A stretch of 63,776 nt of DNA, filler included, from Diploschistes diacapsis (Eukaryota), in assembly GCA_023645945.1 (NCBI GenBank). It is 7 parts of 7 records of this genome, joined end to end, with 100 filler letters (N's around TTAATTAATTAA, not from the genome) between each part and the next. Parts side by side here need not be neighbours in the genome. Positions count along the whole stretch, not along the records: positions 58,009 to 63,776 come from JALAIB010001484.1; 6 more parts are not named here. One strand, given 5' to 3'. Of this stretch, positions 18,390 through 63,776 are shown in pieces. A program made the position numbers and the translations under genes. The notes under the pieces were generated by a model. The model was not told the origin of the DNA. It worked only from the letters and a program-made list of their open reading frames with translations, and did not search any database. Each line of letters begins with the position of its first letter. The stretch's first letter is position 1.

Positions 18390-20423
18390 TCATTTTGAGC
18401 GATCGGGGTCTTCATAGATGAACTTTTGCACTTTTGGGCTGAATTGCAACAACTTCTTCTCCGAATTCCACAGAGGACTCTCACGCAGGGTCTTCCTTGG
18501 TACGCCCTTTTTCTTGGCCCTCGACTGCCACACAGCCAGTGGCATGTTCTCCGGCGGTCTGCTGCCCGTATATTTGAGCTTGTAATCCTGCATCGCTTTG
18601 CTTTCGTAAAGACCCTTGTCTTCGACTCCGGGGGCGTTGAGGAAGCTGCGTGATCGGACTGAAGGGTGTATGAACTCGTTCGTGTTCTTGAGCAGTTTCC
18701 GCGTTGGACGACCCGTTGCAGAATCGATGCGGTAGTAAGCGCCTGGTGTACGTATTTTCTTCCCCCCGAGAGCAAATATCGCTTTCCTCGAGTTGTATAT
18801 TTCACCTGTTTCATGTCAGAGGCGCGCTTTCAAAAGGCTGTCCCAACATACCAAAGGACCAAGGCCGAGGCTCCTGGCCGGACTTCTCATAGTACGAGTA
18901 CGTTGCATGGTGCTGTTCTTGTATGTAGTTCGGATGAAAATCGATAAACGGTTCCAATTGGGCAATCATCCACGCGAGGGTGATGTTGGAGACCTCCTGG
19001 TCAGGGTAACCCCCGCCCACATTCGAATGTACACCGGGAAACCAAACTTGTCGAAGAATCTATCAACCGTTTAAAACGCGACTGGCTGGCCCCACGAAAT
19101 GGGGTACGTACTGTAGTACTCCTGCTGGATTTTTCCCACAAGGCAGGCGTGAAAGCTGCCCTCTGCTCATCAAGGGCCAATGCTTGAAACGCGTTTTCGA
19201 TGCTTTCGTCCAGGCCGGTGTCGTAGAAGGAGTACTCCTTCATCTTGCGGCTCTGAAGACCAATCCGCTCTAGAATTGGTATACGGGGTATACCAAGTGA
19301 TCCTTCGAACCCGTTACTCAGATCGGTCCCACCAGAGGAAGTATGTAGAACGCTACGTACCGACGGTTTCGAAAACCCCAATTGCTTTGATCTTGATGCC
19401 TAACCGTGTAAGACCACGCTGTTCAAGATTAATCGCTATTTACTAAGAGGGTCAAAGTTGGTATTACGGATTGAAGCTCGTTCCTGTACTTTGGATCGCT
19501 GGCGCTTGGCTTGTTATGGAACGGGACATTTGGGAAGGGGGAGTCGTAGTTGTTATCCAGACGGTGCTCGTAATCCTCAAAGACTACGCCGAGGAACTCC
19601 AAGCCGGGCTTGGTCAACAGTCCAACTACGGTGATCATACCAGCAATGCTACGAGCGGTAAATGCGCCCCTCGAGAAGCCGACGAAGAAGATCTCGTCTC
19701 CTGGGGTGTAATTGTTGGCGACTGCATCAGAAAGTCAAACACGACCCCTCGTCGGCGCTTTGGTACAGCGAAAACTTACGGAACGAGTAGCCCTCGCGGA
19801 CATTGTCAGCAAGACCTGCCCCCGCCCCGCCACCCACGGTCCGGGTAATGGGGCCACCGGCGGTGCCTACACCAGCCTGGTAGTAGACGACCTGAGGGAT
19901 CCGATCGGAACTGGTGGACTTGATGGCCCTGCATAAGCGCGTGACATTACTCGGCACAGGCACTTGATTGTGCTTTAGGCCGCTGTCTGCATCGAGCCAT
20001 GTCCCTGCACAACATATTGGTACATGTACATGAAGAACCGACATTATCAACAACTAGGAAAGGCTTCTTACCATCGCATGCAACAATCAGGCGCTTGCGA
20101 GAACCCAACACTCCAGAAGGCGGGGCAGGCGGATAGTAGGATGAGGTTGCCGACGCCGGAGGGATCCCGATGGGTGGCGGCCTCGGCCCGCCGACATGGT
20201 TCCTCGGAGGCATAAGCCCAGCAGACGGTGGAGCGCTCGGGCCCGGCGGCGGGTGTGTGCTTGTAGGTCGAGGTGCCGCCTGCAACGCGGGTGAGTGCGC
20301 CGTCAAGGCTCCGGAGTATAATGGCCGAGCCGGCGCGTATCGCGAGTAGGGTCCGGCTGGATAGGGAGATACAGGAGGAGGATGCGGAGAGATCCCGGGT
20401 GCCGGAGAAGGCGTTGCCTGCAT
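18390..20423 (-). CDS. DUF2235 (Tle1-like) alpha/beta-hydrolase with Pro-rich N-terminus
   Basis: KRLIVACDGTW, SNVTRLCRAI, VVYYQAGVGT, GFSRGAFTARS nucleophile motif, AFQALALDEQRAAFTPALW, VGGGYPDQ..SNITLAWM; about six introns. Confidence 0.9.
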
Positions 20424-28580: not shown

Positions 28581-29104
28581 CGAGCAATCTATGGAGGCTA
28601 GGTCGCAGGCGATGAGCGCCAGATCTGAGAGGTTGACGCTCAAGGCCATGGCAGCCCGTGGTGCGGATGGATTTTTGTTCGGACAAATTCAACGACGGTT
28701 GTCTAGCTTCCACTCGCTCCGCTAAACGTCAATACTAGCGCAAGCCACACCAGATGCTACCTAGTAGTCACTCACATATGATGCCACAAGATTCAACTTC
28801 TCACATATTTTCTGCTTCTATCCAATACATACGGTAATTAATTGTATCTACTACACGAAGACTGTACGAGAGGTAGGCGTGTGGATAATGTATAGGACGC
28901 ACTTGCCTGCCGTAGATGCACTACGAGACCATCTGTTTGCTACAGTGCCCGTTGCCCAGGGCTAACGCTCCTGATTATGATTCAAGAAGCCACCGTTGAA
29001 CCGCAGATTTTATCATATAATATTATAATATAATCTCTACGACTGCCATTGAATTCGACAACTATCCGAGGTCAAGCCGGCATGATATCCGGGCCTTCGG
29101 CTTA

Positions 29105-29314
29105 ACGTGTTTCACCACACAACGGAACACACCACTAAGCGGAACACTACATTATAATGTAATTGCGCTAGATCGAGCGCTTCCATATTTAGTTTAGTTT
29201 CTAAATTTTAAGCGAGCTCTTGAGCTTAGCCTGGCTCTGTACGAAGCCCCACAACGACACATTATAATGTAGTGCTCCGGTTAGTGGTGTGTTCCGTTGT
29301 GTGGTGAAACACGT
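29105..29314. mobile_element. MITE, Tc1/mariner (pogo/Fot1-type), 210 bp
   Basis: 56-bp TIRs starting ACGTGTTTCACCACACAACGGAACAC (2 mismatches between ends); TA on both flanks; no ORF. Confidence 0.93.
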
Positions 29315-30132
29315 TAGTCTGGGTTGTGGATTACTATTTAACATGTAGTTTCTAATATGTGTATCTTTGTGAATTGGAACCGGTTCCTGGCCTCGAGGGA
29401 CGCTGCTTTACACTTCCTCTTCACCGCGCCTTTACTGGGTGTCCCATGTAACCACGCGATCGATCGTGTAGTTTCGTAGGATTACGTTCTGTATCCCAAT
29501 CCTTCCTCCCGGTTCAATCTCGTCGTCCAGTGGCTTCGAGTCGCAGCTTTGTGGACCTGTTCATCGCAGCCATAGGTTCATTTCGTCCCCAGCGAAATCA
29601 ACAAGGCTTGCCCAGACCTTTACGCGATAACTGATTTGGTTATTCATGGACGGGATAACTATAATGTAACTGGATTGATTAAATTTCCCAAAAGAGTCCT
29701 GTTGTTCAGCCTCCGTGATCGATTGGGTTAGAGCAGCGAACTTACAGTGTCACTCGGAGGCTAGTACTAATAGAGTAAAGGGCGTCCCTGGATGGCGGCG
29801 GAACAATAGTTCCGCCGAGATTGACGCCATGACGGCGTGCAATTGGCGGCTTCCACCGGCCTAAGGCCAAGGCTGGCGAGCGTGCTGTGGGCTGATACAA
29901 GCACGTCCTCTTCTTGCAGCATAGGCAGTCATTTCGCTCCTTCACATGCGACATTATTGTGTTCTGCGGTATTTCTAAGAACATCGTGAAAGCAAAACAG
30001 CCTGAACATACTACATCCCAACGCTCCTCACCTGCAACCGTCTGTAGGCTCTGCCCCGGTCCTCCCTTGCATACAGTGCCCGGCAGAATCTCCAGTAACG
30101 CATGCAATCATTCAACGATCGTTCTTGAAGGG

Positions 30133-37176: not shown

Positions 37177-38017
37177 CAGGAGGTTGGATTCGATTATTTA
37201 TATATGGTATAGTACAGGAACTCTGCATCGTTACGTTTACATCGGCCTAACAAATCCCGTACATTGGCGCTGGAACTCCCCTTGGGACAGGCAGACTTGG
37301 GCTTTACAGACCTGCATGAAAAGAGATCTCATGCGGAGATGATAGCAAGCCTTTCACCAGCAACACCTCTGATTGCCGATCCTGCTACACGCTATGACGG
37401 TCCGATTACGGTGGCAAGGACCGTCAAAGCTTATGCAAGGAGTGGGTAGCAGGTCTGCATATCGAAGATCAGGTTCAAACTACGAGTGCGGCCATTTACA
37501 AGGTAAGGAATTGGTAAACTGAGACGTATTTCTGACTCGTATCCGTGCTGCCGTTACCGCGAGAAAGTCAATCGTCAGCGATATTGTGATCATCGCACGT
37601 ACAGATGCCCTGCAGAAATAAGGCTGGGAGGGGGCAATTCAGCGACTGAAAGCAGCCCGAGAATGTGGTGCAGAGGTCGGTTTTCTTGAAGATATGCGCA
37701 CAAAAGAAGAGGCACAGAAAGCTATCAAAGCTCTTGACTTTCCCCTCCTCTTAAATATGGACCATGGTGGATCAACTCCAGCCATATTCGTTGCTGAAGC
37801 TCAAGATATGGGGTTTAAGATCATGATCTTTCCTTGCGCTGCATCGAGCTCCGCATACTCTGCAATCAAGCGATGCTTCCATGGATTGGCAGAAAAGGGT
37901 GAGCTTGCGCCTGAAGGACAGATGCCCCAAAAAGAGATCTTTGGGATCGTTGGGTTGGGCGACAGCTCAAAGGTTGACGCAGAGGCTGATGGGTTTGCAT
38001 ATTCGGACGGCGTCTGA
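37177..38017 (+). pseudogene. Pseudogene of ICL/PEP-mutase superfamily lyase (2,3-dimethylmalate lyase / OAH-like)
   Basis: GFDYLYM, LGQADLG, TPLIAD, AGLHIEDQVQT, CGHLQGK, IIARTDAL, LLLNMDHGGSTP, GFKIMIFP; frameshifts near 37445 and 37485, in-frame TGA 37520-37522 and TAA 37619-37621. Confidence 0.88.
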
Positions 38018-39129: not shown

Positions 39130-40247
39130 ATGGCACACCAAATCCCCGAGAAGCAATGGGCGCAGGTCATCGAGAAGACCGGCGGCCCAATCGCGTACAA
39201 AGAGATCCCAGTCCCAAAGCCAGGCCCTGACGAGGTCCTTGTCAACATTAAATACTCTGGCGTCTGCCATACAGATCTCCACGCTGTCAACGGCGACTGG
39301 CCATTGCCCACAAAGCTGCCCCTTGTCGGCGGCCATGAGGGCGCTGGTGTGGTGGTAGCCCGCGGCGAGCTCGTCAAGGATGTGGAGATTGGCGACCATG
39401 CAGGTATCAAGGTAGGTAATTTCCTCTCCCGCACCGTGGTTATCGGACCCACTAACTAAATATTCCGCAGTGGCTGAACGGCTCTTGCCTCACCTGCGAC
39501 TTCTGCCAGCAGATGGACGAGCCCCTCTGTCCCAAGGCCCTCCTCTCCGGTTACACAGTCGACGGTACGTTCCAACAATACGCCATCGGCAAAGCCGCAC
39601 ACGTCGCACGGATCCCCAAGGATGTCGATCTCGAAGCCGTCTCGCCCATCCTCTGCGCCGGCATAACCGTCTATAAGGGCCTCAAGGAATCCGGCGCGCG
39701 GCCAGGCCAAACCGTAGCCATCGTCGGCGCTGGCGGCGGCCTGGGCTCGTTCGCGATCCAGTACGCCAAGGCCATGGGTCTCAAGGTGATCGCCATCGAC
39801 GGCGGCGACGAGAAGAAGGAGCACGTGACGAAGCTGGGCGCGGCGCACTACGTCGACTTCACCACCTCCTCCAACCTGGTCAAGGATGTGCAGGCCGCGA
39901 CCGAGGACGGGCTGGGACCCCACGCCGTGCTACTCGTCGCCGTGAGCGAAAAGCCCTTCCAGCAGGCCTCAGAATACGTGCGGCCCCGTGGGACTATCGT
40001 TGCCATCGGTCTACCTGCCGGCGCGTTCCTCAAAGCGCCGGTCTTCGAGACGGTTGTTCGACAGGTGTGTATCAAGGGGAGCTATGTTGGTAACAGGAAG
40101 GATACGGCGGAAGCGATCCAGTTCTTTAGGGAGGGCAAGATCCAGGCGCCATACAAGACGGTTGGGTTGAGCGAGTTGCAGAAGGTTTACGATTTGATGC
40201 ACGAGAGTAAGATTTCGGGGAGGTATATTGTTGATACTAGTAAATAG
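39130..40247 (+). CDS. adh1: Zinc-dependent alcohol dehydrogenase (ADH1/AlcA type)
   Basis: [30 protein letters not shown] structural Zn site, [31 protein letters not shown]; intron 39412-39470. Confidence 0.97.
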
Positions 40248-40277
40248 ATATATTAATCTAAAGGCATAGATTAGGGG

Positions 40278-40377
40278 NNNNNNNNNNNNNNNNNNNNNNN
40301 NNNNNNNNNNNNNNNNNNNNNTTAATTAATTAANNNNNNNNNNNNNNNNNNNNNNNNNNNNNNNNNNNNNNNNNNNN
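40278..40377. other. Artificial contig spacer
   Basis: N44-TTAATTAATTAA-N44. Confidence 0.98.
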
Positions 40378-41490
40378 ATTTATTTTAGGGTTTTATAATT
40401 TAGATCCTAGGCTTTTAAATCTCTTCGATTTAATTTATGTTAGATAACGTAATCGGTACCCGCGTTCGTAACCGTAACAACTACCGAGAAACGTAATTTT
40501 AATAAACGATTCAACGTAATAAAGTAAATGTTAATCCGGACTTATAACCTATTTAATAACGTAATAGATGTATTAAAATCTAAAAATCTATTTAGGAAAT
40601 TATCCTATTTTATAGACTTTTATCCTTATAAAATACGTTAAGCCCTATTACCTACACTATTCCTAAACCGGTCTAGTTGGGATTCCAGGAGGTTCAGCTG
40701 AACTGAACCTCCCTCTGGAACTTAGTTAGACTCCCAGCCATGCCTTCTGCCTGTCTGCTCAACACTTTTTATTTTAGAAACCTTCGACATAAATTTCTAC
40801 TACAACTCAGAAGTATGGGGGTCGGCTGTCCTTTCTACATTGAAAAACATCATTTCGAATATTATGCTTCCTCTTTCAAATATTATCAATTTTTAGGTAA
40901 CGTTAGAAGCACCTATTATAAAAGAACTAAAACATAAATATATAGATATTAAGTTACCTGATATTTCTTTACTAATAAAAATTCCTTTATTAAAAGATCT
41001 TCTTCTATCGTTCCGACATTTCTTTATCAATCTAAATATTAATTCTTAATCTAATACTCCTGTTTTAAAAATTCCTATCTTTATACCATTCCGAGAATTA
41101 GAATAAATTATATCCTTAAAACACTCAACAGTTCTTAAATCAGAATATTTAAAAACGCTTACGATTACATTTTATCTAAAATCAATTAACGATTTCTAGT
41201 TTATTAAAAACGTTATAATTTTAATTAAAACAAAAATAAACCTTTAGAATTAAGAAATATTACGATTCAAAACTAAATATAACAACTAAAAAAAAAATAT
41301 AAAGAACTTAAAGACATTATTAACACAATATTACCGAATAGAGATATCATTATTTAAACATACTTAAAAAATCCCTTTAACGTTAAAACGATATTTAAAT
41401 ATTTCGGTAATAAAGGTTACAAAAACCTAAAAATAAAAAAAAATAAAAAAATAACAAAAGTAAAAGAAAATAAAAAAAAAAGAACCCGTT
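40378..41490. repeat. AT-rich, RIP-like degenerated repeat/duplicated sequence
   Basis: Abrupt shift to very high A+T, abundant TpA, scarce CpA/TpG, many stops; sharp return to normal composition at about 41490. Confidence 0.8.
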
Positions 41491-41719
41491 TAAGACTCAG
41501 GCCTAAGGCGAAGCTCCCCGAAAAAGAAGCTGCATCGGATATCTCAGACTTTTCAGAAAGAGTATACGAAGATGCAATACAACCGAATTAGGGGGAGTGT
41601 GAGAAGGAGCAGAAGCAGGGGGACATGATTAGTCATACAGAATATATATAATCCGCTTACAGACATCTCTTGCAGAGCAATACAATCCTTCTTCTCCACC
41701 AATATAACTGAAACTTCAC

Positions 41720-42669
41720 AAGCCTTGATAATGTCTTGTGGTTCGGTTTTGGCATCCAACATGTTGTCCGAATCCTTGTGACTACAGCGCAGGGGATGTC
41801 TGCACTCGCGGTTGTCGGTGGCCTCTCGGAAACTGTGTCCTCTGAAATGGTAGCTTCTGTCCTCGATCAACTACCCGTGGTCTATGGCCCCCGCAAGAGC
41901 TTCGGCCGGCTCTCCTCCAGTGGGAGGCCTTGGTGGCCAATTGCTCCGGCGTTGTGTCAACCACCAAGTTTGCTTTGGTTGCTGAACAGTTTATGAGCTT
42001 GAACGGACAATCCCCAACCGCTCCCTATCCGTTGGGAATCAAGGCTTTGGAGACAAAAATTCGAGACTGTGAAAGTCAGAAGAAATTGCCGCTGCTCTTC
42101 AAGCTATTGGACGGCTGTCTTCTGGCTCTCTAGCTGCTATCGAACTTCGTGGGGGCGCCGTCTATGGACTTGTGGCAGCTATAACTTTCTGGTTCTTGGC
42201 CTTGGAGTCTAAATTTGATGAAGCACCATTGTTCTCCACCGGAGTGTATCAGAGGAAGAACCTATCCACGTACTTGTCTCATATTCCTCTACTGAAGATC
42301 CTTTTGATTCTTTATAGATGAGAGTAGCTAGCCGTTCCTACAACATCATAGTATCTCTTCAGTGCTTAGCCAACGGCTCATTGACAGTAACAACCTGATT
42401 ATGGCCTTTTCTGGTAGAGTGTTGTGGAACTCAGCGATCCGGGACACTTTTGGCACTGTTGGTCAAGAGCTTTTGAAAGCTCGTTATCACTTAGCCAGGT
42501 GCTCGGGAATGGAGCGAGGATCTCATCTAGGCTTGCCATAGACATTAAGAATTCTCGCTGGAAAAATTCACGCACTTCTTTTAAGAAATCTATAGTTCGC
42601 ACCGACATTAGCTATGGAATACCATTATTTATTTCGCTACAGCACGGCTACCTGGACGGGCTGCTTTAG
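41720..42669 (+). pseudogene. Pseudogene of an uncharacterised Pezizomycotina family (WFGFG motif)
   Basis: DNVLWFGFGIQHVVRILVTTAQGMSALAVVGGLSE then frameshifted ALVANCSGVVSTTKF and IELRGGAVYGLVAA segments, resembling a recalled family consensus; several stops and frameshifts. Confidence 0.6.
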
Positions 42670-52139: not shown

Positions 52140-52657
52140 GAGGTAAAGAACGGGAAAAGAGAGAAAGAGGAGGGGGCTAGTGGGGAAAATGATATGTGGA
52201 AAATATGCCGGCCCCGGTGTCGTCAATGCCTCCCTATCTCTAGGGCGAAACGATCAGCTTCAGCAAACGCTAATCTATTCAGCATATGGTGTTCGCCGAT
52301 ATATACTGAATACTGCTTAAATGGCCGCACATCCTATCATCTCACTCCACTTATGATATCTACAGCACGGTGCATCACTGCCCCTATTCTACTCCCCGTC
52401 ATCTCATTCATGGTTCCAGCTGTGCACAAATAAGTCTCCTCCTGTTCGGCACCACCCTGCACGCATCTCGAAGCTCTTATGGTTTTAAGAAATAAACGGT
52501 GAAACCCGAAGGCTTGAATGTTTTAATATATTTTTAAATGTTTTGAAACCTTCTAGAGTCCTCTAAGGCTTCTTAAGAACCTATTAATTAGCTAGATTAA
52601 CCTATTTAGGTGACTTTTCTGATAAGATAAGTTATTAACCCCAAGGTTTTAATAGTA

Positions 52658-52866
52658 ACGTCTTTCCCCAGGAAACGGAACACCCCACGAAGCGGAACAC
52701 TACATTATAATGTAATTACGCTAGATAGTTTTAAGCGGGCTTTTGAGCCCCACAACCACACATAAAATTATTTGTACGAAACTAAATCTGTTTTCAACTA
52801 CATTATACGAAGGTGCAGGGATTGTGTTCCGCTTCGTGGGGTGTTCCGTTTCCTGGGGAAAGACGT
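52658..52866. mobile_element. MITE, Tc1/mariner (pogo/Fot1-type), 209 bp, related to the 29105-29314 element
   Basis: Perfect 43-bp TIRs ACGTCTTTCCCCAGGAAACGGAACACCCCACGAAGCGGAACAC; TA on both flanks; internal blocks shared with the other MITE. Confidence 0.95.
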
Positions 52867-53759
52867 TAACCATTGTGTTGGATGAGTCAGCGATGTATCT
52901 CAATTAGAATTGAAGAGTAGGGTCGCTTTAGCATGCCATGGAGTTCTTGGTGACTTCCATGACCATTAGTGCGAGAAAGACTATTGACCACGCAGCTACA
53001 AGGCAATATCTATTGATCGTACTACTACTATAGTATAGTATACGCAATGGTGTGGCCAGTCATCGCCAGGCAGCCGTTGAGAGCCCTACATGCCGACGGT
53101 AAGAGATAAAGGTCAGCCTTGTTTGTATCTATCGACACGGTCCTCTTCAGCTTTGCGACTTCAGGTCTGTCCGTCTAGATTACTATTTGGTCCAGACAAA
53201 CAAACCTGGATCATGGTCTGAATCTTGCATCTGTGTTGTTTATCTTTCCTTTACCTTTTGCACCATTCTTCATTCGACGATCAATGTCTGATATTACGCT
53301 TGTTCTGAGAGGCAGCCTTGTTTGTGAGTCCATCTCCACTTGAGAGATCACATCGCAGCGTGACTTATGAGATCTAATCATCTTCCCTCCCCTTTCGCTA
53401 ATCCTTCAAGGCTCAACTCCCGTTTTCAATTGACGGTGTCAGTTAGCTTGGTACTTCGCCAGAGCTCTCAAACCCTCCGCACATCATCTACTCCAACACC
53501 AACTGTAACGTAACCATTCACTCGACGGAAATCAATCCATAAGGGCCTTTCAATCAACCAACCACCATCTCTCACATCCAATCATCTCTTGAAAGAGTAT
53601 CAGACACTACGCAACAGTCTCCCTACGTGCAGATATTTTCTGAACACTTGGCCCTTTTTTCCCTTATCATATAAAGGTCTGCAAAGCCAAGTACCTGCTA
53701 CCTGCAGATCACATAGGATTTCTCCTGTCTCTGTCAAGACCAGCTCCTCGCCTACCGCC

Positions 53760-58008: not shown

Positions 58009-59036
58009 CCTTCGATATTCTTTGCTTCAAATAAACCGTGCACGTATATTGAGATGTAGTGGGAAGACATAGAAAATTCAGAAAGATCGGAAGTGTCAAC
58101 TCCGATAATTTACTTATGTAATAGCGTTTATTTCGGTCAGAATAACTGCCCCCCTGTATACGCGTTCCCCATCCATCAAAACATCTCGAAAGCCTTCACC
58201 CTACGCGGTCTGCATGTGATGCTGGCTTATTTTTACTTTCCCTTTAACCTTAAACTCTCACACGTCCCTTCTCTAGCCTCCTCTTCGAATGTTTACAAGT
58301 TCCTCCAACAGCAGCTATCTAAAGGGCTTTATCCCTCCTACACATAACAAGAACACGGCCCTCAAGTTCTACCATTATTGAGCCATTTCCCCTTCTGTTC
58401 CGAGTGTTGACCGCTTGCTTTTCCAATTACGCCAATCTAGACTCGGAGAGCTATCTACAAGAGCTTTATTCGCCGAAGCGAGATACGACTGGCCCTACAA
58501 GTCCCTGGCACTCCAACGAGTCTAACAAGCCTACGCAGTTCGGATCCTCTGATGGGCTTAGCTCTAGTCCAAAAAGCCGCCGACAGCTCTAGGAGGGCTT
58601 CTCGTGTCACTGCTGATAGAGCATGCCTCCGCCCTTGGAGGGTTGATTGGTAGAGGGAGGATACGAAGGAATGTCCAGTGTCGATCGCATGAGACTGTCG
58701 AAGCCAGCTTGCCCTAAACTCGCATTAGATTGGCCGCATTTGAGAAGCGCACTTCGAGCTCTCTAGGTTCACAAGCAGAGAACCTCTCCTCTCCAGATGC
58801 GCACTCCAGGGGTCGAGGAACCCTCGGAGCAAAGACTCTGCCGCAAACAATCCTGCAGACTGACACTCTTTTGATCATGTTAGAGAAGTCCGCCCATCCT
58901 TTCACACGGCTTTGCTGGCTTTTTTGTCTCCTAGGCTTCTCCCTGCGGTATAAAGCAGACGACCCCAATTCTTACAGAACACCTTAGCGGTGCTTGGAAG
59001 CCAAGAAGAGTTATCAGAAGTTCAGCTCGAGTCGCC

Positions 59037-62000
59037 ATGTCGTCTTCCGGGGCGGAAAACACAGACGTCACCTCTATCGTATGTGCACGGGGCTCACAGA
59101 GTGGCCTCCCACGATCTCGGTTTTCCTAATGTGTAGCCATTCATACTAACCAGCCGCCAGAAACCTGTATCATCTCTACGATCGCAGTTCGAAACCCTAG
59201 CTACCCAACTGTCTATTACACCCACCCCGTCTGCTACGCTTGCTCCGCCTCCTGGCGGGCCACCTACATTTCCGACAGGCACGGAGCGTGAGAAGCCACG
59301 AGCGTCCTTGGACATTGCCCGGCCGTCATGGAGTGGTACAAGGGAAAACGATGGAAAGAGAAGCGTAGAAATGGGCAATCTGTCGGAAAGGCCGCAGAGG
59401 CAAGAGCTAGATCCGGGCAGCGCTTCCAAACAGCGACCAAAGTCCATGGTGTCACGGGCACCACTGTTGCCTCCTCCGGCAGTCCTGCTTCAACCTCCTG
59501 CTTTCTCCTTTCGCGCGAAATCATCTCATACAACGGCCCAGGGTTTGGAGAAGTCGGTGAATGCTGAATCGAAGGACCAGGATATAAAAGCTAAGGGCCA
59601 TGTTCCTGTCTTCCTCTCTCCTGCTGGGTCACCAGAACGGATTGAAGAGAACGGACGCAGAATACCGCCAGCTATTTCTCTTCCAGGAGCAAAACGGGCA
59701 CCACCTCCTGTCAATAGGGCAAACAAGCCAAGCACACCCACCACTACAGGCTGTTCTTCCCTTGAGCCTGGCCGCACTCCGCAAGCCAAGGAAGGAAATT
59801 CACCCTTCAGCACTCCGCCTAGTAGCGATGAAAGTCCTACCAAGAGTAGTTTTCGTAATCTTCCCATCACAAGGCTTCCCGATCCGTCGAATCTCAGTCC
59901 AGATAGTGCTCCAAGGAGTTACTTCTCGACGCAGCACAACAGGCAACTTCCTGCTGACTCACGACGAGCATCTACTGCCCCCTCACAGCGCTTCAACAGC
60001 CCGAGGAGAGAAGGACGTATCGGTGTGTCCCCCGAACGTACCCTCGATCTTCCTGAACACAGGCCTCAGTTACCTGTGCGAAGGATATTGGAGAATGCGC
60101 ATACGGGGCCTGCTCAGCATTTCACGACTGGGAGATTCCCGGTGCATCAAGGGAGGAAAAGAATAAGCGCCCAGCCTCCTCCCCGCCCGTCCGATGAGAC
60201 AAAATCCAATCGTCAAGTTGCAGAGTTTCTCCCTCCGCCTAGGCGGAATCCTGTTGCAAATGGGCTGAGCACGGCCAAAGCTTACCCTAAGATTTCACAT
60301 AGCGCTAGGATCCAACCAGTTCATCGAGTCGTCAGTGAACCAAGCACACCGGGCGCGTCTACAATAACAGATTCTCGAGCCTCTTCTAGGCAAGGATTTG
60401 ATTCCGATGGCCAAGACCCGGAAGCATCCAACACTCCGGCAACCTCAAATGCCGTCTTCCCGAGTGCATCACAAACGAATCGTCGCCCGCCACGATCGAA
60501 GGTTAGTGTGCAACAAGTCTACACCGATCATGACACCAAATTATTCGATATCTGTGGGCGACATGTCTGCTATACTGGTTTCCATACCAAAGCGTGGGAC
60601 CTGGTAACGGGACGACTTATACTAGACATGTCGATGGGTGAGCGTGACCTAAAAGTCACGGCTTTGGTCTTCAAGCCAGGGGCCACAACGGAAGAGGAGG
60701 GTCAAAATGTCTGGCTGGGCACCAACTATGGTGAGATCCAGGAAGTGGACCTCAAGAGCCAAGGTGTGACCGCCACTAAACCAAATGCCCACCAGCGAAG
60801 AGAGATCATCAAGATATATCGGTATCAGAACGCTATCTGGTCTGTTGACGAGGACGGCAAATTTCATATCTAGCCTCCGGACAAACAGGGGCTTCCTAGC
60901 CTACAACTTGTACCACTCTCTTACCGAGTGGCTCGTGGTCACACCTTTTCGATGGTCGTGAATCATTATCTTTGGTATACTGCCGGCAAAGGCATCAATG
61001 TCTATAATCCAATGGGAGGAGACAATCATTTCAATATAACAACAACGCCGCTTGTCCAGTCCGGTGTCGGAGAAATTACCTCCGGCGCTTTCATCAGCAG
61101 TCAACTCGACAAAGTCTTCTTCGGACATGCCGATGGCAAGGTCACCGTATACTCGGTCTCACAATTCACTTGCGTGGGTGTAGTCAATGTAAGTGCTTAC
61201 AAGATAAATGCACTCGTAGGCGCTGGAAATCACCTTTGGGCAGGTTTCAGCACGGGAATAATCTATATTTACGATACAAGGACGACACCATGGCAAATCA
61301 AAAAGGAATGGCAGGCACACGCGAGTCCAACTACCAATATACTTGTTGACCGGAGCAGCGTCTGGAAGCTTAGTAATTTGCAGGTTGCTTCCATTAGACT
61401 TGACAACACAATTCGACTTTGGGATGGATGGCTGGAAGACGACTGGCTCGAGGCTGATATGCAGGACCACGATATCGACTATTGCGAGTTCAGCGAGCTC
61501 AAGGCAGTCGTTGTGACTTGGAACGCCGGTGCCTCTACTCCATCAAGCCTCCGCAACGACGAGGAAGACAGCAACTTCTTCCGGGAAGTGATCCAGCCTG
61601 GCCATCCACCGGACATCCTGGTATTTGGCTTTCAGGAACTCGTGGACCTGGAGGACAAGAGGCTTACGGCGAAGAGCATATTCAAAGGCAGTAAGAAGAA
61701 AGACCCGATGGACGCTGAACATATGAGCCACCAGTACAGAGCGTGGCGAGACTATCTTGCTCGAGTGATCGATGAGAACATGCCTTCGAATAAGCCCTAT
61801 GCGCTTCTACACACGACCAACATGATTGGTCTTTTCAGCTGTATCTTCGTCAAAGCCTCTCACAAGAGTCGAATAAGTAACCTGGGCGTCACCGAAGTGA
61901 AACGTGGACTGGGCGGGTTGCACGGCAATAAGGTCAGTCCAGCCCTTGTGAACTAACTTTGCGTCTTTTTCCAATGTACCATCTATAGGGCGCTATCATC

Positions 62001-62873
62001 ATCCGCTTCATCCTCGACAATTCTTCCCTGTGCTTCACAAACTGCCATGTCGCCGCCGGTCAGACGAAAACTATGGATCGCAACAACGACATCGCCGCCA
62101 TCCTAGAAGCCTTCGCTCTTCCAAAGGAATCCGACCCCGATCGTCGCATCGATCACTTCATCGGTGGCGGTAACGGCAGCATAATCACCGACCACGAGAT
62201 CTGCATTCTCGACGGCGACCTGAACTACCGCATCGACACCATGGGCCGCGACACCGTCGTCAAAGCCATCAAGTCAAACAACCTCGCCAAACTCCTCGAG
62301 CGCGACCAGCTCCTCGTCTCGAAGCGCCGCAACGCCGGCTTTCGCCTACGGCCGTTCAACGAGCAGCCCATCACGTTTGCGCCGACGTACAAGTACGACG
62401 TGGGCACGGACCGGTACGATTCGTCGGAGAAGATGCGCTCGCCGGCGTGGTGCGATCGGATCCTGTACAAGGGCGTGGGCCGCATGAAGCAGTTAGAGTA
62501 CCGGCGGCACGACGGGCTGAGGGTTAGCGACCATAGGCCCGTTAGTGGGATTTTTAGGCTAAGGGTGAAGAGCGTGGTGGGAGAGAAGAGGGAGGGTGTT
62601 TGGAGGGGTTGCGAGCGCCGGTTTGGAGAGGCGAAGTTGAGGCTGGCGAGGGATGCGAGGTCAGTTGGTTCTCATTTCTTACTCCTGTTCCTTTTTCAAT
62701 TGCCCGTTCTTTTGCTTTTCCCGTCTTCTTGATGCTTGCTTCTACGAACTCCTTTGCTAACTTGTGCCCCATCTTGTTTTCCTTTTCGCTCTGTCCACAG
62801 ATTAGACTACCTGATCAGCGTCCTTGGCGTCGAGCAATCCGAAGCCGCGCGACTCGTCGATGGATTGGAATAG
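59037..62873 (+). CDS. Inositol polyphosphate 5-phosphatase (Pro-rich N-terminus, WD40-like region, IPPc domain) with one internal in-frame TAG
   Basis: Exons 59037-59078, 59161-61932, 61989-62659, 62801-62873 give 1185 codons; motifs VVTWNAG, VFGFQELVDL, HGNK|GA, NCHVAAGQ, GDLNYRID, FAPTYKYD, PAWCDRIL, SDHRPV; TAG at 60871-60873. Confidence 0.92.
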
Positions 62874-63776
62874 AAAACGAAGCAAATTCTCTTTTTCTCT
62901 TTTCTGGAGAAACTTGTGACATGTGACATGTGAAAAACAATAAGATCCCTTCCATCCTGAGCGCCCAATTTTTTTGTTTTGTTTTTACGCCTTGGACTTG
63001 GTTGTACTACTTCCGTATGTAGCGTAGCAGATCCCTCCCCTCCTCTCTTCATCTCACCTCACCCCCCCCTTGAAAGGGATATGCGCACGAGAAGGAGCAG
63101 GGTGGCCTATGACGCAAGCAACGACTCGTAACAAAATCTGGCAGTTTTGAGCAAAAGTGCGACTATGTCTTTTGCAATTCTAGGATATGCTCTCAGAGAC
63201 GGATGACCTTCTTTCCTCTTTTTTTTTAAACTTTTTCTTCACGAAACTCGAAGGGGGTAAATAAGGGTGGAGCGGGTGGTGTACTGTATATACATAAAAT
63301 TGTTGTTCGCACTCAATGAGTGTATGCAACGATAGACGAACCCCGTATGACAGGCCTGGCAATGAGTACGAAGTACCGTACGTACAGCGCCGTTTTTGAT
63401 TTTTTTTTCTGGCTCGGCGATGCCAGCCAGTCTCGTTGGTGGTGCTGAAAGTTCGAAAAACATGGAAACGTTGTTTCTGTGCGCCTAGGCCAGACTTCTG
63501 CCAGAGTACGAGGATATTGGTTGGGTTCTTTCGACGTTGATACCAGGTGTAAAAACATTTTTTTACAATTCACGCTGCGTCTGAACAAGACAAGTTACTA
63601 CTGTACGAGAAATGTTTTGGTTATTTTTCAGAGCGATATGCCTGCTGGCTTGGCATAGCAGTCTTGGCACGCTTCTCGCAAAGCAAAGCAAAGCAAATGC
63701 GATATCTAAAGTTCTATGTGTGGCCTTGAATATACAGTATGGAGGAGGTAGGTTCAGCCGTCAAATGACATTTTTG

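Follow-up and report, generated by a model that had tools for sequence, protein, structure and literature searches.

A genomic TAG at an invariant tryptophan codon of an otherwise intact gene for a predicted WD40-propeller 5-phosphatase in the lichen fungus Diploschistes diacapsis

Among the closest described counterparts of the locus reported here are the PSC (premature-stop-corrected) pseudogenes of Fusarium graminearum, otherwise intact genes with a UAG where relatives have a sense codon. The available text of PMC10776026 counts 71 of them and derives their TAG codons mainly from TGG. The bases preferred at Fusarium editing sites are C or U at -2, U at -1, A or G at +1, G at +2, and A or G at both +3 and +4, with a hairpin loop around the site; +3 is the third most important position (PMC9600606, in the part available). 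Editing of mRNA in fungi is documented only in Sordariomycetes and Pyronema, and a full-text literature search found no report of it in Lecanoromycetes. The taxonomic range of mRNA editing in Pezizomycotina is treated as unsettled in the accessible sections of PMC11156358, and lineages with duplicated Ame1 are regarded as editing candidates by the authors of PMC11087585, as far as its available text goes. Here we describe a TAG in a gene of D. diacapsis, which a quick tree puts within Lecanoromycetes. The premise of an earlier, sequence-only reading of this DNA, that the organism lies outside the classes with documented mRNA editing, thus stands.

The gene lies in a 63.8-kb window (the whole stretch of D. 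diacapsis DNA that was analysed, 63,776 nucleotides with filler). We modelled it by tblastn with full-length homologues and took the start, splice sites, and stop directly from the sequence (Table 1). The conceptual coding sequence of 3558 nt contains stops at codons 585 and 1186 only, the latter being the gene's terminal TAG at 62871-62873. Exon 1 was placed from the N termini of homologues, which read M...(S/T)I(K/R)PVSSLRS, with KPVSSLRS resuming at 59161. Direct reading of the sequence gives GT..AG ends and a CTAAC branch site in all three introns.

The predicted product is a WD40-propeller inositol polyphosphate 5-phosphatase. The Pfam profile PF22669 (Exo_endo_phos2/IPPc) is covered over its whole length, in two halves split by intron 2: profile positions 1-116 match residues 793-933 of P0001 (75 bits, cut-off 27), and positions 116-287 match the window at 61989-62732 (193 bits, cut-off 27; E 1.1e-56). 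The catalytic motifs of 5-phosphatases are WNxxx, GFQE, NxH, GDLNYR, PxWCDRIL, and SDHxPV. Here, VVTWNAG, VFGFQELVDL, FTNCHVAAG, GDLNYRID, PAWCDRILY, and SDHRPVS align with homologues and with OCRL-1, and the exon 3 motifs CH(V)AAG, GDLNYR, PTYKYD, PAWCDRIL, and SDHRPV are intact. For the propeller, PF23754 (Beta-prop_IP5PC_F) scores 19.1 bits on P0001, below the cut-off of 27, and generic WD40 propeller families match weakly; many homologues carry a precomputed PF23754 or PF24807 annotation.

Table 1. Features of the 5-phosphatase locus, in window coordinates
Feature	Position	Strand	Details
Whole gene, predicted WD40-propeller inositol polyphosphate 5-phosphatase	59037-62873	+	4 exons; 1185 codons plus own stop
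Exon 1	59037-59078	+	14 codons, MSSSGAENTDVTSI
Intron 1	59079-59160	+	82 nt, GTATGT...CTAAC...CAG
Exon 2	59161-61932	+	924 codons; carries the internal TAG; placed by alignment to P0048 and Pfam
Exon 2, N-terminal region, rich in Pro and poorly conserved	to about 60489	+	
Exon 2, WD40 propeller	about 60490-61500	+	followed by first third of catalytic domain
Candidate cryptic intron	60840-60899	+	60 nt, in frame, GTCTGT...CCTAG
Weaker candidate cryptic intron	60822-60899	+	78 nt, in frame, donor GTATCA
Predicted RNA hairpin	60852-60878	+	minimum-energy folding
Internal TAG in frame (codon 585), at a WD40 Trp position that is invariant	60871-60873	+	candidate edited base, A at 60872
Downstream ORF, from first in-frame ATG past the TAG	60952-61956	+	334 aa, identical to P0122
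Intron 2	61933-61988	+	56 nt, GTCAGT...CTAAC...TAG
Exon 3, remainder of 5-phosphatase catalytic domain	61989-62659	+	placed by PF22669 and OCRL-1 match
Intron 3	62660-62800	+	141 nt, GTCAGT...GCTAAC...CAG
Exon 4	62801-62873	+	C-terminal LDYLISVLGVEQSEAARLV motif common to homologues; ends with normal stop

Around the internal TAG, the sequence reads AAA TTT CAT ATC TAG CCT CCG GAC. The same frame is open for 578 codons on one side (59137-60873) and 360 on the other (60874-61956). Codon 585 is the sole internal stop in the 1185-codon gene and lies upstream of the catalytic domain; the 5-phosphatase reading frame is broken there. No second stop, frameshift, or splice-site loss was found in the 1185 codons, the three introns, or their branch sites. 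The sequence-only reading had been accurate on these points: it had assigned the TAG to codon 585 of 1185, an exact match with our model, had described the frame as open on either side, and had considered the other parts of the gene, including the introns and IPPc motifs, undamaged. In the protein database, the upstream part is the 500-aa ORF P0237, and the downstream part appears only as the P0122 ORF (100% identity to the window; one member, on one contig of 5631 nt).

A Logan contig from the lichen metagenome run X1 is 5631 nt long and has a mean word depth of 89.4; positions 59000-63000 align to it with 0 mismatches and 0 gaps. As this contig gives identical letters, the TAG is no artefact of the record's assembler; as X1 is probably the source sample, the agreement comes without a second individual. 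A search of sequencing runs listed X1 as the only DNA run with this stretch of the gene and listed no RNA run. What X2 and X3, from the same study, contain is limited to short, divergent fragments of the catalytic domain that do not reach the TAG. The TAG at the Trp codon of this otherwise intact gene is a real genomic feature. It is a disabling lesion of the genome, as a nonsense null allele would have, and it also has the form of a PSC, a UAG at relatives' sense codon in an otherwise intact gene.

All 120 homologues listed (the best 120 of 236 at E<=1e-3) have W at codon 585, and all 80 metagenome loci kept (the best 80 of 172 confirmed) have TGG there, bearing out the Trp that the sequence-only reading had placed at this position. 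Sharing of the TAG by relatives, a point raised in the sequence-only reading, was seen in none of these best 120 homologues and best 80 loci. None of 235 collected proteins ends at the TAG site, and a further search for proteins ending there (three matches from 36 candidates) returned only the window's own P0237. Protein searches and the metagenome scan found no relative above 58-64% identity, apart from P0122 and P0237; this range is that of the nearest proteins, and 64% is the figure from the tree. Judged from these alignments, the TAG is private to the D. diacapsis lineage among everything searched, and the ancestral codon is TGG.

Relaxed constraint was not detectable in the gene by conserved-column comparisons. 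The window deviates at three of 77 conserved columns, with a family median of 0.039 (93 homologues), and the deviation is similar upstream and downstream of the TAG. In a full-length set of 14 homologues (16 collected, less two with large gaps), the window has 23 deviations over 267 columns, which places it at the top of the set (others, 1.9-7.1%); all 23 are conservative changes. Assuming indel-to-substitution ratios of 0.05-0.15 and neutrality, a null allele has an age ceiling, at the 95% level, of about 0.5-1.1% neutral divergence. Constraint does not separate RNA editing from a young nonsense allele, since a null allele below that divergence would look alike. Within the gene family, lone nonsense lesions occurred in one of 80 loci (the best 80 of 172): in a relative, L075, the codon for the catalytic Glu of the GFQE motif is a TAA, and the alignment, about 680 codons long, is open elsewhere.

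On balance, we lean towards reading the TAG as a young loss-of-function allele of the 5-phosphatase gene. A single G-to-A transition would have converted the TGG of invariant Trp-585 to TAG, either in the lineage or merely in the thallus of this lichen-forming Lecanoromycete. With the TAG read as a stop, translation would end at residue 584. An mRNA that escapes nonsense-mediated decay would yield only the Pro-rich N-terminal region and approximately the initial third of the WD40 propeller region (some 127 of its 345 aligned residues), without the phosphatase domain. The allele would be recent, and the remainder of the gene would still be perfect because the time was too short for a second lesion.

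Several observations argue for a null allele. The TAG is genomic, at depth 89; the same codon serves as the ordinary stop of the same gene; and it is private among the best 120 homologues listed and the best 80 loci. TGG to TAG is a plain transition that makes up 5-10% of the nonsense paths in the coding sequence, and the TAA of L075 is a lone nonsense lesion that editing cannot revert to Glu. Against a null allele stand the count of second lesions, which is zero, and the conserved-column deviation, which equals the family median and is the same on either side of the stop. Because the gene is strongly conserved across Ascomycota, a null allele that is common in the thallus is also unexpected a priori. 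Moreover, a UAG at a Trp codon is the exact type of lesion that restorative editing repairs in fungi, and the predicted hairpin has the A in its loop.

Restorative A-to-I editing of the mRNA is the strongest alternative, one that we consider less likely. An ADAT-type Tad2/Tad3 enzyme with a stage-specific cofactor would deaminate A60872, turning the UAG into a UIG that is decoded as Trp. Full-length enzyme would be made only where editing is active, such as ascogenous tissue, and elsewhere there would be a truncated product or none. The fuller claim, that a lichen-forming Lecanoromycete restores Trp-585 by ADAT-type editing and has the enzyme only in editing-competent, probably sexual, tissue, is in our judgement unlikely. 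In favour of editing, the UAG replaces an ancestral TGG in an otherwise intact, constrained-looking gene; this is the site signature of the 71 F. graminearum PSC pseudogenes (PMC10776026, available text). The same text reports stops at PSC sites in single species of other Pezizomycotina classes, where editing is unestablished. Lecanoromycetes possess orthologues of Ame1 (DUF726), which fill 49 rows of Supplementary Data 6 of PMC11087585; five species appear twice among the first 30 of the 49. The accessible part of that paper also describes an independent origin of editing in Pezizomycetes.

Other data weigh against editing. No Lecanoromycete case is documented in the literature. According to the available portion of PMC11156358, mRNA editing was sought without success in the Eurotiomycete A. 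nidulans and the Leotiomycete B. cinerea, and according to that of PMC11087585, the Ame1-Tad3 interaction reportedly arose inside Sordariomycetes; both points favour a null allele. The private nature of the TAG (in no relative among the best 120 homologues listed and the best 80 loci) counts against editing, as does the word 'inositol', which occurs 0 times in Table S1, the F. graminearum PSC genes. No similar stop is present in other recognisable genes of the 63.8-kb window. Here we noted 17 same-frame ORF pairs (at least 90 aa per side) split by one stop, of which the phosphatase pair alone lies in a Pfam-recognisable gene. The other split pairs, where checked, coincide with real genes that lie on a different strand or in a different frame, or they lack a Pfam match. 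The Pfam scan took 107 of 110 ORFs of at least 110 aa, and the other three, the phosphatase exon ORFs, were scanned separately. Rfam families in the window were not found at the gathering score.

The flanking bases bear on both readings. C at -2, U at -1, and G at +1 match the F. graminearum rules, as does the predicted hairpin with the A in its loop, in a fold of +-30 nt as used in PMC9600606, and these matches favour editing. By the same rules, in the available part of that paper, the C at +2, C at +3, and U at +4 are depleted bases; with +3 ranked third in importance, they count against editing and for a null allele. Three of the six flanking bases thus fit Fusarium preferences, and two of those three, U at -1 and G at +1, are inherent in any TAG. 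The sequence-only reading had listed both the -2 C and the +3 C as mismatches. This holds for the +3 C, but the -2 C is enriched.

The stem it had proposed, GGA(C)GGC/GCCUCC with the A at the end of the loop, recurs in the minimum-energy folds of 61-, 101-, and 149-nt stretches. In the predicted structure, GGA(C)GGC (60852-60858) pairs with GCCUCC (60873-60878) around a 14-nt loop (60859-60872) whose final base is the A of UAG. The +-30-nt fold has an energy of -18.8 kcal/mol and a z of -2.0, with nine of 200 shuffles as stable; z is -1.0 and -1.4 for the longer stretches, and a 31-nt stretch around the TAG gave no fold. In our comparison, a predicted 14-nt loop with the A at its 3' end seems unlike an anticodon loop, which argues against editing. 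Base rates favour the ordinary null allele and leave editing as a live minority hypothesis.

We regard translational readthrough as very unlikely. A near-cognate tRNA would occasionally decode the UAG, helped by the C that follows, to yield a little full-length enzyme. C is the leakiest base after a stop (+4) in eukaryotic readthrough, and the downstream frame is intact. The strong UAG readthrough motif is UAG-CAR-YYA, and UGA-CUA is also a readthrough context; the sequence here is UAG-CCU-CCG, in which the +4 C alone fits and the known promoting motif is absent. Basal readthrough typically amounts to no more than about 1%. Since readthrough of UAG uses tRNAs for Gln, Tyr, or Lys rather than Trp, it would replace the invariant propeller Trp. 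The stop also precedes two introns, and the mRNA should therefore face nonsense-mediated decay.

Equally improbable, in our view, is that the TAG is not the germ-line state, being instead either a systematic error of the sequencing or a variant, somatic or from a minor genotype, of a chimeric thallus that both assemblers picked. The single run found to contain the DNA is X1, probably the source sample, and because contigs drop rare variants, a TGG allele could hide in that sample. Against this, the two assemblies agree with 0 differences in 4 kb at a mean word depth of 89.4, and there is no homopolymer or repeat in the sequence around the TAG.

We give the least credence to a cryptic in-frame intron that skips the TAG and yields a protein shortened by 20 or 26 residues in the propeller. 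In the sequence-only reading, the donors at 60822 and 60840 had been said to shift the frame; they do with the TAG's own AG, but with the AG at 60898-60899 they give in-frame introns of 78 and 60 nt. Both candidates have a typical fungal intron length, the donor GTCTGT resembles the gene's own GTATGT and GTCAGT, and pyrimidines (CTTCCTAG) precede the acceptor. However, neither has a CTAAC/CTRAC branch site at the usual distance, which the real introns have in three of three cases, and the donor of the 78-nt candidate has no G at +5. The segment is coding and gap-free in the best 120 of 120 homologues listed and the best 80 of 80 loci and has invariant residues; the 60-nt candidate would excise 20 conserved residues, WSVDEDGKFHI-W-PPDKQGLPS. 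Such candidates are expected by chance, as there are 25 in-frame GT/GC..AG pairs of 40-250 nt near the TAG.

Reassignment of the UAG codon was rejected because the gene itself terminates with TAG, and leakage of RIP is unsupported because the indices of the gene are normal (TpA/ApT 0.70, (CpA+TpG)/(ApC+GpT) 1.14), a distance of about 19 kb separates the gene from the nearest RIP-like block, and the window has no large repeats. A lone minus-strand CpA-to-TpA change is indistinguishable from any other transition.

If the TAG is a null allele, a lichen fungus in the wild would carry a natural knock-out of a phosphoinositide/inositol-phosphate 5-phosphatase that is strongly conserved, a case mildly informative on the dispensability of the gene and otherwise ordinary. 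If it is repaired in RNA, the range of fungal mRNA editing would extend to the largest lichen-forming class. Restorative mRNA editing would then be known for the first time outside Sordariomycetes and Pezizomycetes, with either a third origin, perhaps tied to the Ame1 duplications listed for some Lecanoromycetes, or a much older one, and 60872 would be a PCR-sized site in a genetically intractable organism. The main value of the locus is that it reduces the question of editing range to one cheap experiment at 60872.

Compared with known systems, the locus resembles F. graminearum PSC pseudogenes such as PUK1, AMD1, and FgAMA1/PSC33, each likewise an otherwise intact gene with one TGG-derived UAG (PMC10776026, PMC11156358, in their available text). 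It shares with those sites the U at -1, the G at +1, and an A in a predicted hairpin loop, and FgAMA1, like the predicted phosphatase, is a WD40 protein. Unlike the F. graminearum genes, its host is a Lecanoromycete, a class with no documented editing, and it is known from DNA alone. It also differs from Fusarium editing sites in its depleted bases at +2, +3, and +4, and the 5-phosphatase family is not among the 71 F. graminearum PSC genes. Many Fusarium PSC sites are conserved across species, according to the accessible parts of PMC10776026 and PMC11156358, whereas the D. diacapsis TAG is in no relative searched.

Ordinary nonsense alleles and nascent unitary pseudogenes, such as L075 with its TAA, likewise have one transition-type lesion in an open, conserved gene and are private to one genome. 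Compared with L075, whose TAA is not restorable to Glu, the lesion here is of the sole type that fungal editing can reverse and is present at depth 89.

With respect to the encoded protein, human OCRL-1 and INPP5B and S. pombe synaptojanin (4cmn, 3mtc, and 1i9y) match the catalytic domain at E values of 5.6e-36, 1.9e-34, and 2.9e-29 with motifs aligned, a comparison that covers the C-terminal two thirds of the domain only (4cmn_A for OCRL-1). Unlike the window's predicted protein, these three have no WD40 propeller. In plants, the 5PTase12-14/FRA3 group are WD40-containing inositol polyphosphate 5-phosphatases. The fungal WD40 5-phosphatase orthologue of Trapelia coarctata, MMC30_004059 (P0030), has the same domain order, an N-terminal beta-propeller followed by Exo_endo_phos2/IPPc, and is 63% identical to the window over 472 aligned of 481 WD40-plus-first-catalytic residues. 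The fungal orthologues and the window share the GDLNYR, PAWCDR, and SDHRP motifs, and what sets the window copy apart from them is its in-frame TAG.

We built the gene model for the phosphatase by tblastn with full-length homologues and direct inspection of the window sequence. The gene has four exons and 1185 codons, of which codon 585 is the sole internal stop. The three introns measure 82, 56, and 141 nt; each is bounded by GT..AG and contains a CTAAC branch site. The TAG occupies 60871–60873, with its A at 60872, within AAA TTT CAT ATC TAG CCT CCG (60859–60879). The frame is open for 578 codons upstream and 360 codons downstream, and translating 59137–61956 with the TAG as Trp gives no further stops. 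The sequence-only reading had described the same anatomy: a TAG at codon 585 of 1185, three intact introns, and no other lesion.

Features of the phosphatase gene and of other open frames in the window
Feature	Position	Strand	Basis or description
Exon E1	59037-59078	+	tblastn and sequence
Exon E2	59161-61932	+	tblastn and sequence
Exon E3	61989-62659	+	tblastn and sequence
Exon E4	62801-62873	+	tblastn and sequence
Cryptic intron candidate, 60 nt	60840-60899	+	GTCTGT..CCTAG; among best of 25 pairs
Cryptic intron candidate, 78 nt	60822-60899	+	GTATCA..; among best of 25 pairs
Tle1-like phospholipase catalytic domain	19004-19399	-	isolated ORF, partial Pfam match (profile 185-242 of 287)
PEP mutase	37622-38014	+	isolated ORF, partial Pfam match (profile 157-236 of 240)
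Long open frame, 1248 aa	53514-57257	+	no Pfam match
Long open frame, 1125 aa	25155-28529	-	weak fibronectin type III match only (Pfam)

Seven other recognizable genes lie at 2550–40244, encoding a PalB-type calpain, a C2/SMP tricalbin-like protein, STI1/HOP, an MFS transporter, a DUF7732 protein, lipin/Ned1, and a zinc alcohol dehydrogenase; an ORF-level scan detected no in-frame stops in them. The two isolated ORFs could be the remains of former genes or belong, as exons, to further genes, and may be the broken pseudogenes mentioned in the sequence-only reading. Inverted-repeat elements at 29103–29316 and 52656–52868, with arms of 45–58 nt at 97–100% identity, have a 71-nt stretch in common (89% identity) and are MITE-like; comparing the window with itself revealed no other repeats. 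Paired N runs (528 N in total) occur at intervals, several spaced near-regularly about 5.9 kb apart. No repeated sequence underlies them in the self-comparison, and their appearance suggests masking more than a biological feature. The phosphatase gene is free of them.

Pfam searches matched WD40-type propeller families upstream of an Exo_endo_phos2 (IPPc) domain, whose two halves flank intron 2 and score 75 and 193 bits (cut-off 27). The second half also aligns with 5-phosphatase domains of known structure, those of OCRL-1 (E 5.6e-36), INPP5B, and S. pombe synaptojanin, including the NCH, GDLNYR, PTYKYD, PAWCDRIL, and SDHRPV motifs. Because of these Pfam and structure-domain matches, the predicted protein is taken to have a Pro-rich N-terminal region of low conservation, followed by a WD40 propeller and an inositol polyphosphate 5-phosphatase domain, an architecture common to hundreds of fungal homologues. 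The TAG falls in the propeller region, 127 residues along an aligned 345-residue stretch, upstream of the entire catalytic domain.

The named best matches come from the lichen fungi Trapelia, Circinaria, Icmadophila, and Agyrium. In a quick maximum-likelihood tree built from 27 rows, the window sequence fell within a Lecanoromycetes clade (SH-aLRT 97), in an Ostropomycetidae-like part, sister to five sequences (SH-aLRT 98); its end branch is 0.33 versus a median of 0.21, with several neighbors similar. Among 5.8 billion clustered proteins, none was closer than 58–64% identity except the window's own ORF pieces downstream (P0122) and upstream (P0237) of the TAG.

The TAG is present in the sequenced DNA. 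A Logan contig (5631 nt, mean word depth 89.4), assembled independently from lichen metagenome run X1, probably the source sample of the window DNA, matches 59000–63000 with no differing letters and no gaps. Because the contig is identical, an assembler artefact is ruled out, although a variant peculiar to that thallus would look the same. The proposal that the TAG replaces a Trp also held: the aligned residue is W in all 120 of the best homologues (from 236 with E ≤ 1e-3), and this column is among the invariant ones of the protein alignment. This set is biased, since a protein predicted from an ORF crossing the site can never show a stop there; we therefore also compared relatives' DNA. The aligned codon is TGG in 80/80 metagenome loci (the best 80 of 172 confirmed relatives), none of which has an in-frame stop in the 297-residue region; none of these relatives shares the TAG. 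Homologue models P0194, P0123 (Variospora sp.), and P0138 (Arthroderma sp.), from unrelated taxa, begin 7, 9, and 19 residues past the Trp site; possible causes are introns, faulty gene models, or breaks close to this position.

Conserved-column comparisons with 93 and 14 homologues gave no detectable sign of decay. In the WD40 region, 77 columns reach at least 90% conservation, and the window differs at 3 of them (1/25 upstream of the TAG, 2/52 downstream), equal to the median of the others (0.039); 54 of the 93 homologues deviate at least as often. Along the full length (16 homologues collected, two with large gaps dropped), it deviates at 23 of 267 columns (8.6%), the top of the set (others, 1.9–7.1%); every one of the 23 is a conservative substitution (V/I, R/K, E/D, L/V, Y/F, and similar), and no other lineage in this set is as isolated as the window's. 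Under drift, and assuming indel-to-substitution ratios of 0.05–0.15, the probability of no second disabling mutation reaches 5% at approximately 0.5–1.1% neutral divergence. Thus, either the TAG arose very recently or it is tolerated because the gene remains functional.

To gauge how often lone nonsense codons occur, we searched the same 80 loci with the conceptual protein carrying X at the stop; 79 gave an alignment. Stops fell inside an HSP in 43 loci, and all but one lay in unconserved stretches that, judged by eye, resemble short introns read through. The exception, in metagenome locus L075 (2623–2625), is a TAA that replaces the catalytic Glu codon of the GFQE motif, where the alignment is otherwise open over query residues 189–870; A-to-I editing could not restore it to Glu. 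Lone nonsense codons therefore occur in roughly 1/80 assembled copies among these best 80 of 172 relatives. TGG>TAG makes up 5–10% of nonsense paths in the phosphatase CDS. We lean, at slightly better than even chances, towards a young null allele.

Restorative A-to-I editing of the UAG is unlikely but is the leading alternative. In its favor, a long conserved gene is perfectly preserved, and the lesion is exactly of the editable kind. Against this, the TAG is private, the measured rate shows that lone nonsense codons arise anyway, no editing is documented in Lecanoromycetes, and the flanking context fits only by half. Editing sites in F. graminearum favor C or U at −2, U at −1, A or G at +1, G at +2, and A or G at both +3 and +4, with weights −1 > +1 > +3, and more than 62% lie in hairpin loops predicted from ±30-nt folds (PMC9600606). 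In the context C U [A] G C C U, positions −2, −1, and +1 match, although −1 U and +1 G come with every TAG; the bases at +2, +3, and +4 are depleted at Fusarium sites. Of the two mismatches noted from sequence alone, +3 C stands, and −2 C in fact fits the preference. The suggested GGA(C)GGC/GCCUCC stem does form in the predicted ±30-nt fold, with A60872 at the 3′ end of a 14-nt loop (−18.8 kcal/mol, z −2.0; 9/200 shuffles as stable), and recurs in 101- and 149-nt folds (z −1.0 and −1.4). Overall, the match to Fusarium rules is middling and changes the odds little.

Readthrough, cryptic splicing, and artefact are, even jointly, quite improbable; a small share of the odds is assigned to no explanation. 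UAG readthrough is inefficient, and the residue it incorporates is Gln, Tyr, or Lys, not Trp; a C after the stop is its sole favoring feature. Splicing could remove the TAG, as 25 in-frame GT/GC..AG pairs span it. Donors 60822 and 60840, previously held not to rescue the frame, would form in-frame candidate introns with the acceptor at 60899. However, both lack the CTAAC branch site present in 3/3 real introns, and either would remove at least 20 conserved propeller residues. TAG is not reassigned in this organism, since the gene itself terminates with a TAG. RIP is not indicated as the cause, the gene's dinucleotide indices being normal, as in the rest of the window; the sole RIP-like block is AT-rich 40001–42000 (GC 0.355; TpA/ApT 1.11; (CpA+TpG)/(ApC+GpT) 0.84).

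Fungal mRNA editing has been documented for Sordariomycetes and for Pyronema (Pezizomycetes) but was not detected in cleistothecia of A. nidulans or apothecia of B. cinerea; its range within Pezizomycotina is described as open (PMC11156358). The Ame1-Tad3 interaction is reportedly Sordariomycetes-derived; for Pezizomycetes the same paper proposes a separate origin, and it names lineages with Ame1 duplications as candidates (PMC11087585). Supplementary Data 6 of that paper has 49 Lecanoromycete Ame1 rows, with five species doubled among the first 30. For lichen-forming fungi, our search of full-text literature turned up no account of nuclear mRNA editing. The nearest comparison is with the 71 premature-stop-corrected (PSC) pseudogenes of F. 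graminearum, whose table contains no inositol phosphatase; their TAGs, like the one described here, come chiefly from TGG, and other classes, too, include single species with stops at PSC sites (PMC10776026).
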